Shown here piece after piece: positions 20,833 through 25,978 of a DNA stretch of 64,000 nucleotides (positions within the stretch are counted from its first letter, which is position 1; each line of letters opens with the position of its first letter). Source of the stretch: an uncultured Candidatus Micrarchaeota archaeon. GTDB lineage: Archaea > Micrarchaeota > Micrarchaeia > Micrarchaeales > Micrarchaeaceae. The notes beneath the pieces were generated by a model, which saw only the letters and a list, made by a program, of their open reading frames with translations, made no database searches and was not told the origin of the DNA. Position numbers and translations under genes: made by a program. The DNA lies in assembly GCA_963741095.1 (NCBI GenBank), contig CAVUGN010000009.1:62756-126755 (forward strand), read 5' to 3'.

Positions 20833-21630
20833 ATGGAAACCAAGGCTCTGCAGAAGGAAAGGGAGACGACGCAGGCAACCATAATTGAGATGGCTGACGC
20901 GCATTGCCATCTTGATCTCATGGACCCATCGGAGATAGCCGACTGCATCAAGGCCGGGGTGATGACCCTGATCACGGACGGCGTGGACACGAAATCCAAC
21001 GCCAGGGCGGTGGAACTGTCTGACGGCAGGCACATCTTCGCCGCGCTGGGCATAGACCCGGAGCATGTGCCGAACACGAGCGACGAGGAGCTCGCATTCA
21101 ACATCGGCCTAATAAGGAGCAACGCAAAGAGGATCGTCGCGATCGGGGAGATAGGGTTGGATTACAAGTACAAGCCGGACTTCAATGCCATGGAAAAACA
21201 GCGAAGATTCTTCGAAGGTTTCCTTGATTTGGCGGAGAGCCTCAAGCTGCCGGTGTGCGTGCATTCAAGGAACGCGCTTGACGACGTTCTATCGATAACC
21301 GGCGAGCGGGACAGCAAAATGGTGCAGATCCACTTCTTCGAGGGCAACGTGCAGCAGGCAAAAGAGATAGAGCGCCGCGGTTACATGGTCTCCATCCCCC
21401 CTCTCGATTCCGGCAAACGAATGAGGACATTGAAGGAGATGGCCATAGACAACATAATGGCGGAGAGCGATGCCCCGGTGGCAGTCGGTTCGCCATTGAT
21501 GGTAAGGAAATCCATAGAGATGATAGCAGCAGCAAAGGGTATGAGTTTCGAGTCCACGGCTGAGGTAGTGGTAAACAACACGAAGAGGTTCTTCAACCTG
21601 CGCGCGAAAGCGGGCCTCATGCGTGCATGA
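20833..21630 (+). CDS. TatD family nuclease
   Basis: DAHCHL, AIGEIGLD, HSR, ESDAP. Confidence 0.92.
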   Translation: METKALQKERETTQATIIEMADAHCHLDLMDPSEIADCIKAGVMTLITDGVDTKSNARAVELSDGRHIFAALGIDPEHVPNTSDEELAFNIGLIRSNAKRIVAIGEIGLDYKYKPDFNAMEKQRRFFEGFLDLAESLKLPVCVHSRNALDDVLSITGERDSKMVQIHFFEGNVQQAKEIERRGYMVSIPPLDSGKRMRTLKEMAIDNIMAESDAPVAVGSPLMVRKSIEMIAAAKGMSFESTAEVVVNNTKRFFNLRAKAGLMRA

Positions 21631-21671
21631 CCGCCCATTAATAAATATTCGGTGCGCAATACCTTATGCGT

Positions 21672-21746
21672 GGGCCTGTAGCTCAGCTTGGATAGAGCGA
21701 CACCCTTCTAAGGTGAAGGTCGTGGGTTCAAATCCCACCAGGCCCG
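21672..21746 (+). tRNA. tRNA-Arg(TCT)
   Basis: Cloverleaf GGGCCTG/CAGGCCC; anticodon loop CTTCTAA; T loop GTTCAAATC. Confidence 0.95.
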
Positions 21747-22690
21747 GCGTATTTTACGACGACAAAGCCGGGCTCGAATCTGCCAGTCAAGCAAAAGAAG
21801 ATCGTGCCAAAAGGCGGGTTCGGGGTGCGTTTTGGCCGTCTTCCAAGCATTCAGAAAGTCGGGAAAACCAGGGTTCGGGGTTGGATTTTCAGGACTTTCT
21901 GCACCAAACAGAGGATTTCAGCAACAATGTGTCAAAACACCCGTTGGAACAGATCAGAGCCATAGTTGCCAAAGTTCACACAAGACGCTTCAGACGCAGA
22001 AAAGAGCCACGTTACGGCACCATCAACAAAGGCTTCACCGAACTTGAGCTGCAACGCTTCCTAAGAAGCGTCAAGAACGACAAGTTCGGGCTTCTTTTCA
22101 AGTACCAGGCCTTCATGGGCCTTCGAGTTGGAGAAGTCAGCAAGTTGCACGTAAGCAACATCGACTTCGACAAACGAGAGCTCACAATACTTAGTGAAAA
22201 ATCTTCCAAGATGGACTCTCTCATAATTCCTTTGGACTTGTTCAAAGAGACCATATCATTCATAAATCAGAACAAAGAGGCCATTGAGTCAGCGCACGGC
22301 TTCATTTTCTTCAAAGAAAACGACAACAATCACAACGAGGTTCCGCACGTAGACCTTGATTACGTCAGAAAGGTCTTCCGAGAATCTGTAGCGCGAGCCA
22401 ATGTAGACCAAATCTATGCCTATTCAGAAGAGACAACCGTCGGGCATAAAGAAAGACCATTACATCGGCTTACAACGCACAGCCTACGCCACTACGCGAT
22501 AACACACTTCGCCAAGGCTACGAATGGAAATATCGTCTTATCCTCTAGGTTCGCCAGACATGCCAGTCCTTCCACAACTATGCGCTATATCGCAAAAGAC
22601 AAAGAACAGCTTTACAATGAGATAGATAACGCATTCACAAACAGCAAAATCGAAGCAATAAAAGTTCTAGCTAATAGACACAGATTATAA
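21710..22690 (+). CDS. tyrosine integrase (C-terminal/catalytic part; start uncertain)
   Basis: GLRVGEV, HSLRH, ARH, TMRY catalytic set; frame open through att. Confidence 0.9.
   Translation, partial: KVKVVGSNPTRPGVFYDDKAGLESASQAKEDRAKRRVRGAFWPSSKHSESRENQGSGLDFQDFLHQTEDFSNNVSKHPLEQIRAIVAKVHTRRFRRRKEPRYGTINKGFTELELQRFLRSVKNDKFGLLFKYQAFMGLRVGEVSKLHVSNIDFDKRELTILSEKSSKMDSLIIPLDLFKETISFINQNKEAIESAHGFIFFKENDNNHNEVPHVDLDYVRKVFRESVARANVDQIYAYSEETTVGHKERPLHRLTTHSLRHYAITHFAKATNGNIVLSSRFARHASPSTTMRYIAKDKEQLYNEIDNAFTNSKIEAIKVLANRHRL
21711..21746 (+). repeat. left att core (tRNA 3' part)
   Basis: AGGTGAAGGTCGTGGGTTCAAATCCCACCAGGCCCG. Confidence 0.95.
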
Positions 22691-22800
22691 TCATGCTGTC
22701 CTGCACTCTTCAAATGGCAAAACCCAAGTAATCGTCAAAAGCCGAAACTAAAAGTAAGTTATAAATATTATATAAATCACAGCACATAATAGTGATTATA

Positions 22801-23415
22801 ATGTCAGTACAAGGATCAAAAAGTGTTCCAACATCTCAGCAGGTGCGAGAAGGGATTTCCGAGGTATTTTTCACTGAAAAGACTGTAAAGAGCTCGGAGG
22901 CAGTCGCAGCAGTGCCGAAAGGCTACAGAATGGCTCGGCCCGATGAAGTTGCTTTAAACTGGAAAGAAAGTCCAGCATTTCTGAAAGCATTGTATGATCT
23001 TCCATGCGCGGTTTGGTCGGATCAAACAGGACTGACTTCTTCAGGACCTCATAAAATAGATGAGAATGGCAAATCGGTAAAGATAACAGAAGCTGAATTT
23101 ATGGCACTTGACGCTAAAGACAGAAGCTGGCATTATTCAGGAACCGGCCTTGTGGCCCTCCTCGGCTACCACTACTGGGGCGGGGGCGGGAGCTTGGACG
23201 TCAATGCGGGTGCGAGGTCTGACCTTGCTGCCCGGGTGGCTTATGTCGCCCTCGAAGAGGGCGCGCAAAAATCTGGAAACTCGAATACTGAACTAGCCTC
23301 CCTGGTTCGAGAAACTCTACCTCCGATAATTGCTGTGCTAGAGCCATCAACGAAGCCAGAAATACTAGAGAATCTAAGAAGTCTGCTAAGAGCGGCATCA
23401 GAAACGAAGGAATAA
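22801..23415 (+). CDS. DGR target (variable) protein
   Basis: Contains the VR matching TR; AT-rich TATA-like sequence upstream. Confidence 0.9.
   Translation: MSVQGSKSVPTSQQVREGISEVFFTEKTVKSSEAVAAVPKGYRMARPDEVALNWKESPAFLKALYDLPCAVWSDQTGLTSSGPHKIDENGKSVKITEAEFMALDAKDRSWHYSGTGLVALLGYHYWGGGGSLDVNAGARSDLAARVAYVALEEGAQKSGNSNTELASLVRETLPPIIAVLEPSTKPEILENLRSLLRAASETKE
23145..23241 (+). repeat. DGR variable repeat (VR)
   Basis: 97 bp aligning to TR with 16 substitutions at TR adenines, 2 other substitutions and one 3-nt gap. Confidence 0.93.
23247..23263 (+). promoter_or_regulatory. DGR cis-acting hairpin with GAA triloop
   Basis: CGCCCTC-GAA-GAGGGCG just 3' of VR, absent after TR. Confidence 0.75.
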
Positions 23416-23443
23416 ATATCTGATGCTGTCTTACTCTTTTTTA

Positions 23444-23621
23444 CCTAGGTTTGCATGGAGAAATCCTGCAAAACATCGCGGAAGCGATGGGTGTAAGCCT
23501 AGGAGCCACACACCCGTCTACAGTGCTAGCAACAATTAGGCATGCTAGACATGAAATTCAGCAGCGACACTGAGTAAGTATCAACTGAAATCGTGAAGCT
23601 GCGGTGCGCCACGAAAGTGGC
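23444..23621 (+). ncRNA. putative structured RNA upstream of TR
   Basis: Multiple stems, three capped by GNRA loops (GAAA, GGAA, GAAA); no ORF of 60 aa or more. Confidence 0.55.
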
Positions 23622-23646
23622 ATATAAAGTAGATGGATTAGCATTG

Positions 23647-23746
23647 CGGCCTTGTGGCCCTCAACGGCAACTACAACAACTGGAACAGGGACAGAAGGTT
23701 GAACGTCAATGCGGATGCGAGGTCTGACAATGCTGCTCGAATGGCT
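23647..23746 (+). repeat. DGR template repeat (TR)
   Basis: AAC-rich copy of VR, 35 nt upstream of the RT start. Confidence 0.93.
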
Positions 23747-23781
23747 CTTGTTTACATCCTAGGTCCACATTTGGTAATCCT

Positions 23782-24911
23782 ATGGAAACCTACAGAGACC
23801 TTTACACTAAGCTTTGCTCTTATGATAACCTTGAATTGGCTTGGTTAAGAGCAAGAAAAAGAAAGACACTCAAGGAATACGTCATAGAATTCGAATCGGA
23901 TTTAGACTGGAATATAAAACAGTTGAAACACGAGCTAGAAACCTTCACATATTCACCAGCTCCGCTTACTACATTCATCATAAAAGACCCAAAAACCAGA
24001 AAAATAAGCGCAGCGCATTTCAGGGACCGCATCATACACCATGCGATATGCAACATAATAGCACCCATTTTTGAAAAGGATTTCATCTACGATTCCTTCG
24101 CCAATCAAAAACACAAGGGGACGCACATGGCAATCAAGAGACTAGAGAAATTCATGAGAAAAGTAAGTAGCAACCACAAAGCGGTGCGGGGGGGCAAAGT
24201 AAACTTTTTATCAACAAAAGCAATACCGGATACGCCCTTAAAGCCGATGTGCGTCATTATTTCGACACTGTCGATCATCAGATATTATTGTACATTGTAG
24301 AACGTAAAATAAAGGATGCTAATCTTATTTGGCTAATAAAAAAGATACTTGAAAACCATAAAACCGTTATTGCAGGCAAAGGAATGCCGCTTGGTAACTT
24401 AACCTCGCAATTTTTTGCAAACGTCTACCTAAACGAATTTGACCACTTCGTTAAACAGGTGCTAAAGGCAAAATATTACATCAGGTACGTAGACGATTTT
24501 ATAATTCTCCATAAAGACAAGAAAGTGCTGGAAAAATGGAAAGTCGCGATAGACACATTCTTGAAAATTAACCTGAAGATAGAACTTCATCCAGAAAAAT
24601 CAAGAATAGTGCCCATAGTGCGGGGCATAACCATGTTAGGATTCAGAATTTTTCATCATCACAGGCTCCTTAAGAAGAGCAACGCTCGAAGAATTTGGAA
24701 ACGCTTAGAAAGATTCCAAGAAAGAACTGATACGGGCAAAATGACCGTAGACGAAGCAGCACGAAGCATGGAAGGCTGGCTTGCGTATGCCCGCTTTGCC
24801 AATACGTATAACCTGAGAAAAAGAGTTGCTGCAAGATTTAACGCTTTATTCATAAAGAATCCTTCAGTCCTTCAAGCATATCCCGTTCGCTCTGCTCCGC
24901 AAGGCCCATAA
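23782..24911 (+). CDS. DGR reverse transcriptase, split by a frameshift at G7 (24188-24194)
   Basis: PKTRKISAAHFRDRIIHHA; KADVRHYFD; GMPLGNLTSQFFANVYL; YIRYVDDF. Confidence 0.93.
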
Positions 24912-24930: not shown

Positions 24931-25191
24931 TTAAGCCAACAACCTGTTAAACTCGTCCACTGACAGGTCCGCTTCCCGCATTATAGTACGCACCATCCCC
25001 TTGCCAATCGGCTTGTGGGCAGGCACTACAATCATGTTCTCGGGATTCCTTTCTCCAAAAATAGAAGCATATCTTTCCATGTCTGCAAGCTGCATCACGA
25101 TATGGCTGCCCCTCTGGTGGCTGATAATGTAGCCTGCTCTGGTCAGGGCCTTCACCACCCTGTCATAATCTATTGGTACCAGCCTAGACAC
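24931..25191 (-). CDS. hicA: HicA family toxin
   Basis: QRGSHI, VVPAH, GMVRTIMREA. Confidence 0.9.
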   Translation of the reverse strand: MSRLVPIDYDRVVKALTRAGYIISHQRGSHIVMQLADMERYASIFGERNPENMIVVPAHKPIGKGMVRTIMREADLSVDEFNRLLA

Positions 25192-25393
25192 TTACCTGCA
25201 CCATCGCCACGGGCACAGGGTTGCCGTGTTTTTTGAGTGCTTCCAGGTATGCCTGTATCGCTTCCTTGACGTTCTTCATCAGTTCCTTGCGCGTCCTGCC
25301 TTCGGTGGCGCAGCCCGGAAGGTCAAGCACCTTTGCTACATACATGTTGTCTTCGTCCTTTTCTATTATGACCCTGTACTTCATCCTTTCCAT
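25184..25393 (-). CDS. hicB: HicB family antitoxin (short)
   Basis: DLPGCATEG, NVKEAIQAYLE. Confidence 0.9.
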   Translation of the reverse strand: MERMKYRVIIEKDEDNMYVAKVLDLPGCATEGRTRKELMKNVKEAIQAYLEALKKHGNPVPVAMVQVSV

Positions 25394-25942
25394 GGTTATA
25401 TCATGGTTGTGCGGATATTAAATCTTTTCCTCGGGTCGCACATCTCTATCGCCTTGCTTTGCAAGGCTCACGAGGTGCCTCCCTAAGCCAGCAACCTGGC
25501 AGTTCAAGGAACCTTACTGCGCCGCTTTTTGCCCCCACTCAAAAAGCGGCCGTTTCTGATGAAACTCTTTTTCAAAGAGTTTCCGCTTGAGCCCGCCGAC
25601 CGACGCCGAAGGCGTCGCTGGAGGCGGGCGAAGGCTTCTTAAGACGAACTGTGGGCGTATGTAGGTCGTAACTTAATGGTAAGTAGCTCTCTCGATAAAA
25701 TTTCGCTCCAAAAAACCTGTCGACGAAGCCGTTCTTAAGACGATTTCAAAAAATCATCTTAAGTCTCTGGCGTCATCTTTAGTTTTTTGATCGGGTCGAA
25801 ATTTGTACGGAACCGCACCCGAAATGCGTATAAATCCTAAGCGCGTAGAAACATTGAAATTCGTGGTTCAATTGCGTCAAACGATCAGGGTTCGGGGTTG
25901 CCATGGAAAACTCAAAAAGACGAGAGAATTTGCTTGGAAGAG

Positions 25943-25978
25943 AGGTGAAGGTCGTGGGTTCAAATCCCACCAGGCCCG
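25943..25978 (+). repeat. right att core
   Basis: Identical to 21711-21746. Confidence 0.95.

Follow-up and report, generated by a model that had tools for sequence, protein, structure and literature searches.

The RNA segment between the target gene and the template repeat (TR) of a DGR in an uncultured Micrarchaeota archaeon is a member of the catalogued Rfam family RT-16 (RF03019) and forms the 5′ leader of the DGR RNA. It abuts the TR, and its first part is complementary, with covariation among relatives, to the last bases of the TR and to the spacer beyond. Both the identity of the RNA and its long-range pairing can be stated with high confidence, and no Avd protein is detectable in the host genome. 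The reading preferred here, to which a probability of about 0.6 is given, is that RT-16 serves an Avd-independent DGR RNA as the scaffold that binds the RT, primes cDNA synthesis in cis and stops it. What appears to be new is that RT-16 abuts the TR and pairs with the end of the TR and the spacer; the RNA family itself was known. The features of the cassette, in coordinates of the window (the whole 64,000-nucleotide stretch of DNA that was analysed), are as follows.

22792..23415, + strand: DGR target gene, an open reading frame of 207 aa that contains the variable repeat
23145..23241, + strand: variable repeat (VR), from the TR/VR alignment
23248..23262, + strand: hairpin GCCCTC-GAA-GAGGGC just 3′ of the VR, within the target gene, read from the sequence
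23412..23417, + strand: ATAAAT, a TATA-like box overlapping the target stop codon, 32 nt upstream of the first base of RT-16
23434-23443, + strand: T-rich run between the TATA-like box and RT-16
23444..23646, + strand: RT-16 RNA (RF03019), 5′ leader of the DGR RNA, from cmscan
23450..23489, + strand: P1a (23450-72, GAAA loop) and P1b (23474-89, GGAA loop), from covariation; lineage-specific insertions in P1
23490..23508, + strand: 5′ strand of helix B (23490-98, GGUGUAAGC) and 5′ strand of helix C (23502-08, GGAGCCA), from RNAalifold, pair counts, the duplex test and MFE
23506..23512, + strand: CCACACA at the junction of helix C and P2, invariant in 28/28 and 26/26 aligned sequences
23514..23636, + strand: RT-16 core, P2-P5, 92-97% paired
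23514-21 with 23629-36, + strand: P2, ending 10 nt upstream of the TR
23526-31 with 23543-48, + strand: P3, with compensatory pairs
about 23548-60, + strand: conserved single strand GACAUGAAAUUCA between P3 and P4
23561-65 with 23598-602, 23568-70 with 23593-95 and 23577-79 with 23584-86, + strand: P4, a long stem with two internal loops
23608-12 with 23617-21, + strand: P5, with compensatory pairs
23647..23748, + strand: TR, from the TR/VR alignment; last bases UGGCUCU (23742-48)
23750..23763, + strand: post-TR spacer; 23750-58 (GUUUACAUC) is helix B's 3′ strand and 23758-63 is the third CCUAGG
23773..23778, + strand: GGTAAT, a Shine-Dalgarno-like box 4 nt upstream of the RT start codon, conserved in the post-TR alignment
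23782..24911, + strand: DGR reverse transcriptase (RT), in two frames (23782-24300 and 24249-24911); RVT_1 7.4e-14

The match of 23444-23646 on the + strand to RF03019 scores 74.4 bits (E 1e-11), above the gathering cut-off of 50 bits, and takes in the entire model (1-158 of 158). RT-16 is present as a single copy in the host genome (1.08 Mb in 11 contigs, 94% complete). In the Rfam scan it is the sole RNA match besides tRNA; RT-10 is absent at E<=1, and neither group II introns nor retron RNAs are matched. The idea that this might be a new RNA is ruled out by its being catalogued already. RT-16 was published in 2017 among 19 RT-associated motifs (Weinberg et al., PMC5737381), and the main text of that paper gives it no function and ties RT-10 alone to a DGR. 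An earlier note, made from the sequence alone, had described the 231-nt gap before the TR (23416-23646) as structured and non-coding, and had proposed that it is part of an extended structured DGR RNA. The sequences it quoted are all present at their coordinates. The gap folds better than shuffled counterparts (+ strand z -3.93, 0/200 as good; - strand z -2.88) and its longest ORF is at most 44 aa. Alignments of relatives bear out the extended RNA: covariation is found in their leaders, and the RNA is conserved, is part of the DGR and runs into the TR.

RF03019 is present at 28 places in 20 of 151 related genomes, that of the window among them. In a sample of 151 genomes spread over the phylum 19 have it, and these 19 belong to 5 of 20 families. 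An RT 58-75% identical to that of the window lies 122-141 nt downstream at 18 of the 28 places (the window RT begins 136 nt past the RT-16 match), with 326-361 nt between the first base of RT-16 and the RT start codon in these 18 loci. One of the 28 is the first unit of a tandem pair. The tandem copies (L024 and L017, genome G008, contig 18) are 1.2 kb apart, in the order target, RT-16, TR-like segment, second target, RT-16, TR and a single RT; one RT may there serve two leader-template units. A degenerate pattern scan of genome contigs returned at least 119 loci. The CCACAC context is present in 38 among the matches listed, and the remaining loci, those without it among the matches listed, were discarded as chance matches in bacteria. 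The same pattern has three matches in viral contigs, 0/3 being RT-16 by Rfam. In the literature, as far as the incomplete coverage goes, no paper was found that places RT-16 at the 5′ edge of a TR (one may be in print), that pairs it with the TR end and spacer or that ties it to Avd-less DGRs.

The order of the cassette is target gene, VR, RT-16, TR and RT. The window's VR aligns with positions 23647-23746 of the TR, and the two differ by 18 mismatches at TR adenines, two other substitutions and one 3-nt indel. Among relatives, in the 15 loci with a visible VR, there are 13-22 mismatches at adenines as against 0-3 elsewhere, and the IMH/IMH* difference, GGGTGG in the VR versus GAATGG in the TR, is present in 15/15. 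The TR starts -2 to +3 nt from the 3′ end of the RT-16 model in 13 of these 15 loci; in the other two the local TR alignment begins 22 and 27 nt further on. From the TR end to the RT start the distance is 27-42 nt in relatives and 36 nt in the window, and GGTAAT within this interval would serve as the Shine-Dalgarno box. The split of the RT is due to a frameshift at a G7 run (24188-24194). YVDD and LGNLTSQ are read in its translation, YxDD and I/LGxxxSQ being the motifs of DGR-type RTs, and against retron RT models it scores 46 bits, the cut-off being 235. The target protein has no Pfam or NCBIfam match, and weak matches to antibody chains among PDB sequences (best E 0.006) were taken as chance. 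The hairpin just 3′ of the VR reads as the DGR target-recognition hairpin with a GRA triloop, a type described for nanoarchaeal DGRs (PMC4372165).

Within the leader, the helices of the Rfam model P2, P3, P4a/b and P5 are kept by compensatory changes; all core helices have compensatory pairs except the 3-bp P4c (78% paired), and inner P1 is weaker in this lineage. As in the model, there are conserved single strands besides P2-P5 and the RNA is on the same strand as, and just upstream of, the RT. Unlike the model, this lineage has a 45-nt insert in the P1 loop that holds two extra hairpins. The 158-position model covers neither the junction with the TR, nor the promoter box, nor the base pairs made with the TR end and spacer. 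More distant RT-16 members (L169, L171, L173, L174 and others) have large extra hairpins within P3, P4 or P5, and L169 has one inside the otherwise invariant CCACACA junction. To judge by these sequences, the core evidently tolerates insertions at defined points.

Three of the five hairpins proposed in the earlier note are upheld by covariation. The first (23450-72) changes on both sides in 8/9 pairs, the second (23474-89) in 6/6, and the fifth (23608-21) has 4/5 pairs compensated with 94.9% of cells paired. The first two, P1a and P1b, are missing from ‘minimal’ relatives. The third and fourth, GGGTGT/ACACCC and GTCTA/TAGAC, had to be given up: they are 75.4% paired versus a shuffled mean of 75.3%, with 242/500 shuffles as high, and their bases belong to helices B and C and to P2/P3. 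The note had also paired CCTAGG at 23444 with CCTAGG at 23498 as a possible pseudoknot. The pairing stands (92.4% paired, two compensated pairs) but not the pseudoknot, the helix being the outer stem of the Rfam model's P1, nested in the ordinary way. Inner P1 (columns 7-15 with 71-77 of alignment A3) is 70.7% paired with one compensated pair, and was set aside because an extended first hairpin and helix B explain those bases better. The 3′ strand of P1 (23498-503) sits between the 5′ strands of helices B and C.

RNAalifold on 18 complete leaders does not return P1. Instead the 5′ part of the leader pairs with the TR end and spacer. In alignment A4 (26 distinct leaders, one near-identical row having been dropped) the combined structure of helices B, C and P2-P5 has 94.1% of cells paired and 29/44 pairs compensated; 0/500 shuffles are as high and slid controls reach 26-37%. 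Helix B (23490-98 with 23750-58) is 95.4% paired, with one pair that is CG in 12, UA in 12 and UG in 2, and a second varying pair that is GC in 12 and AU in 9. Helix C (23502-08 with 23742-48), in which the last bases of the TR itself are engaged, is 95.5% paired, with one pair GC in 15 and AU in 9; it has a C.A mismatch in 7 of the 26 aligned leaders, and inspection by eye shows this mismatch in the majority of more distant ones as well. The covariation rests on 26-38 sequences and its statistics ignore phylogeny. The alignments include L022 and L028 (genome G126, flagged unpublished), on which no conclusion depends.

Consistent support comes from an alignment-free comparison of 38 leaders. 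Pairing of a leader with its own post-TR sequence scores -11.4 kcal/mol versus -8.1 for mismatched partners, and for helix C the values are -7.1 versus -5.3 kcal/mol; 0/2000 permutations reach either value. More distant members have a plain P1 hairpin whose loop is complementary to the spacer, with loops UGCAAG, UGUAAG, UUGCAGG and AAACC facing spacers CUUGCA, CUUACA, CCUGCAA and GGUUU, among others. In 14 ‘minimal’ leaders all of the first 19-34 nt can pair with the TR end and spacer, at -17 to -39 kcal/mol, as against -4 to -14 kcal/mol for the local hairpin. The 341-nt leader of the window adopts the closed long-range form by energy alone (MFE -121.2, z -4.03). The spacer CCUAGG (23758-63) is complementary to the first 6 nt of the leader. 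That pair is 88.9% paired in alignment A3 with no compensations, MAFFT misplacing the variant loci, and is supported solely by non-palindromic cases seen by eye, duplex energies and MFE. Just upstream of the TR a near-invariant GGGUUA (window 23629-23640) could, by eye, pair with the TR end instead, and fits all its variants (UGGCU, UGGUU and UGACC) by means of G-U/U-G wobbles; it could take the place of helix C or act alongside it.

In the mechanism preferred here, transcription would start at a promoter overlapping the target stop codon, cross RT-16 (about 200 nt), the TR (about 100 nt) and the 34-nt spacer, and run on into the RT mRNA. The first part of the leader would then pair with the last bases of the TR and the spacer through helices C and B and the CCUAGG pair, and in doing so close the TR into a loop anchored on the P2-P5 core. 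It is this core that most likely binds the RT. The clamp would bring the 3′ end of the TR beside the invariant CCACACA, a candidate priming site, so that cDNA synthesis could be primed in cis, and P2, with its end close to the TR, may stop synthesis at the TR 5′ end. The two adenines beside helix C are always GG in the VR, which makes the exact first templated base uncertain. A single RNA would thereby do the jobs which in the Bordetella phage fall to the Sp RNA, 3′ of the TR, and to Avd, and would do so in a retron-like geometry of closing stem, primer, RT-binding hairpins and template.

To our knowledge the DGR of the Bordetella phage BPP-1 is the only one with a dissected RNA. According to the preprint on it (10.1101/2023.10.23.563531), the TR 3′ end is paired with a primer strand whose last base is A56, and 2 nt on a Stop strand pairs with the segment directly upstream of the TR; next come a small stem-loop, then the thumb ring, which is single-stranded, and then a long stem that binds the RT. 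The same source describes the RNA around the TR as wrapping RT and Avd, with a separate stem-loop after the TR binding Avd. RT-16 has the same order: GGAGCCA paired to the TR end, the CACA linker, P2, the P3 stem-loop, the single strand GACAUGAAAUUCA and P4. In both, the TR 3′ end forms a duplex with a primer strand (in RT-16 the putative one) that ends in A. This match is by element order only, there being no sequence or model likeness between the two. In layout, RT-16 resembles a circularly permuted Sp RNA. The BPP-1 DGR RNA is made up of the 3′ segment of avd, the TR and Sp, the last being Rfam RT-10. Its scaffold is 3′ of the TR, in a TR-RT spacer of 140 nt, whereas in RT-16 it is 5′ and the spacer is about 34 nt, and the RT-16 locus has neither Avd nor the Avd-binding stem-loop.

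The local P1 hairpin and the long-range pairing partly exclude each other. An explanation other than the scaffold is that RT-16 is a regulatory leader, switching between the two pairings to govern RT translation or transcript stability. RT-16 does lie within the 5′ untranslated region of the RT, its 5′ strand covaries with each of two alternative partners (L023, L088 and L036), and the long-range helix ends 10-20 nt upstream of the Shine-Dalgarno-like box. However, that box and the start codon are outside the conserved helices, and no terminator-like site was found. Engagement of the TR's own last bases, together with a core whose end is at most 3 nt from the TR start in 13/15 loci, is not required for regulating the RT alone. 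Regulation as the role of RT-16 is improbable.

With few exceptions among the loci, the true start of RT-16 reads CCTAGG or nearly so, with a T-rich run upstream; the Rfam matches of shorter relatives begin too late in relation to it. Of 25 distinct upstream regions, 22 have a WTAARW box whose first base is between -29 and -32, and two more have GTAAAA or CTAAAA in its place. Archaeal TATA boxes have this spacing from the start of transcription, and on that basis the predicted start is placed at 23444 or immediately upstream, with ATAAAT as its candidate promoter element. Public runs contain low-depth contigs only. One RNA-library contig alone (X17, 23310-23479) crosses the predicted start, and reflects either read-through from the target gene or DNA in the library.

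That contig takes in the stop codon and reaches 36 nt into RT-16, as would also suit a different assignment, in which RT-16 is a stability or termination element in the 3′ UTR of the target gene and its adjacency to the TR is incidental. RT-16 is always behind a target-like ORF and has been kept in 8-9 places that lost the RT. Against this, a TATA-like box at fixed distance and a T-rich run separate the stop codon from RT-16, RT-16 covaries with sequence beyond the TR, and the RT-less copies look decayed. Ownership by the target gene is very unlikely. The RT-less places number 9 of the 28, one of the nine being cut by a contig end, and a query with the window RT finds no RT genome-wide in 3 of 5 checked genomes that have such places. 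RT-16 can thus persist without an RT, probably as remnants: past it the DNA appears decayed and the TR is lost or hybrid. In seven of these loci (L003, L018, L019, L025-L027 and L029) RT-16 is retained behind a target-like ORF with the RT gone, and in L018 the segment behind RT-16 ends in the VR-type GG (IMH) where AA would be expected of a TR, which would fit a recombination between VR and TR.

In retron msr-msd RNA, summarised in PMC8867640, as in the RT-16 leader on the preferred reading, a stem joins the 5′ end to a region 3′ of the template, a candidate priming nucleotide follows the 5′ strand, and RT-binding hairpins precede a template that is read from the closing-stem end. Retrons differ in that here the RT is of the DGR clade, there is an adenine-mutagenised VR copy and there is no sign of a 2′-5′ branch. 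Weinberg et al. speculated that many RT motifs are parts of retrons (PMC5737381) and the closed-stem geometry is retron-like, but that RT-16 is the RNA of a retroelement other than a DGR (an intron fragment, say, or a retron msr/msd) is barely credible, given the DGR-type LGxxxSQ motif of the adjoining RT, the lack of a match to group II intron or retron RNA families in the Rfam scan and the TR/VR pairs, mismatched almost only at adenines, that flank RT-16 in 15/15 assessable loci.

Avd was sought in the 94%-complete host genome with PF05635 and TIGR02436, which gave 0 matches at E<=1, and no ORF of the element matches Avd in Pfam; the earlier note's remark that the element lacks an avd gene thus holds genome-wide at the level of detection. 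With PF05635, 0/19 of the other RT-16 genomes have a match above cut-off, and one has a 13.6-bit match. Avd proteins are poorly conserved, so that profile searches can miss one. In nine wider loci there is no shared neighbour gene beyond target and RT, the neighbours being unrelated housekeeping or mobile genes. DGRs lacking Avd were known before this locus: in the survey of Wu et al. (PMC5758913) 275/372 DGRs have avd and 75/372 have no accessory gene, and these authors conclude that an Avd-independent mechanism must exist. Avd is thus missing from about a quarter of the DGRs catalogued. The earlier note's suggestion that the structured RNA replaces the accessory protein may be correct. Such a replacement is consistent with the lack of an Avd-binding-type stem-loop directly after the TR and with the extensive RNA-RNA clamp around the TR.

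The nanoarchaeal (DUSEL4) DGRs described by Paul et al. 2015 (PMC4372165) share with the present locus a DPANN host, an orphan target protein, a GRA-triloop hairpin in the target gene, the GG versus AA difference of IMH and IMH*, and the order target-TR-RT. By the description in that source, small ORFs between target and RT were marked there as Avd-like by size and charge. Unlike in DUSEL4, and comparing by description, the interval here is RNA with no ORF above 44 aa.

The frameshift in the window's RT is at a site that recurs. A repeat tract (G7-G12, C9-C10 or a GA repeat) is present at one fixed position, between the fingers and palm motifs, in the window and in L004, L007, L009, L011, L012, L014, L016, L017, L021, L022, L028, L081, L163, L165, L167, L169, L171, L173 and L174. 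Of these 20 tract-bearing RT genes 19 are out of frame across the tract, the exception being L169 (G10). Among tract-less RT genes 10/11 are open, L109 having a stop at codon 152. With random frames the probability of at most one in frame of 20 is about 0.003, a value to be read with the related genomes not being independent. That one site has three kinds of repeat makes sequencing error an unlikely cause. The pattern suggests that the tract switches the diversifier on and off by phase variation, with consensus assemblies mostly showing the OFF state; transcriptional slippage is an alternative. Contigs from public runs break at the G tract. A literature search found no report of such a tract. 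The window copy may be inactive at present, since its RT is out of frame and its TR and VR differ by the 3-nt indel and two non-adenine changes.

The DGR is carried by an integrated element with these further features.

21671..21748, + strand: tRNA-Arg(TCT), from ARAGORN and Rfam tRNA
21623..22690, + strand: tyrosine recombinase/integrase ORF; Pfam Phage_integrase 3.7e-12, NCBIfam XerA-like 5.5e-13 (below cut-off)
24931-25191, - strand: HicA, at the far end of the integrated element; Pfam HicA 7.3e-12
25184-25393, - strand: HicB-like, forming a toxin-antitoxin pair with HicA; HicB_lk_antitox 2.1e-11

The 3′ part of the tRNA (21711-21746) recurs as an exact 36-nt direct repeat at 25943-25978, and the two copies are the att borders of a 4.2-kb element integrated at tRNA-Arg(TCT) with the DGR aboard. 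The true start of the integrase is probably downstream of the tRNA. Close to both ends of the element (21809-21888 and about 25888-25903) there are AGGGTTCGGGGT-like repeats, which may be recombinase arm sites. No tRNA/att frame like that of the window was seen in the wider neighbourhoods of nine related DGR loci. Archaeal neighbours flank the related loci: Cdc6, Rpp14, S28e and tRNA-intron endonuclease.

A bolder reading goes beyond the scaffold proposed above and is held only tentatively, as a good deal less probable. In it RT-16 would be a protein-independent start of DGR reverse transcription. A closing stem like that of the a1/a2 repeats of retrons would form between the first 20-60 nt of the leader and the sequence directly after the TR, CCACACA at the end of this stem would supply the priming hydroxyl and P2-P5 would hold the RT, which together would make Avd dispensable. 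The Bordetella arrangement, with its scaffold 3′ of the TR and its Avd, and the present one would then be circular permutations of one ancestral ribonucleoprotein, and the RT would be switchable by its hypermutable tract.

For the RNA family, the finding shows where the orphan Rfam motif RT-16 belongs, as a leader that abuts the TR and is joined to the sequence beyond by covarying long-range pairs. For DGRs, the question of Avd-independence becomes testable with an RT and an RNA of roughly 340 nt. A compact two-part system of one RT and one RNA would be of interest for DGR-based targeted diversification.
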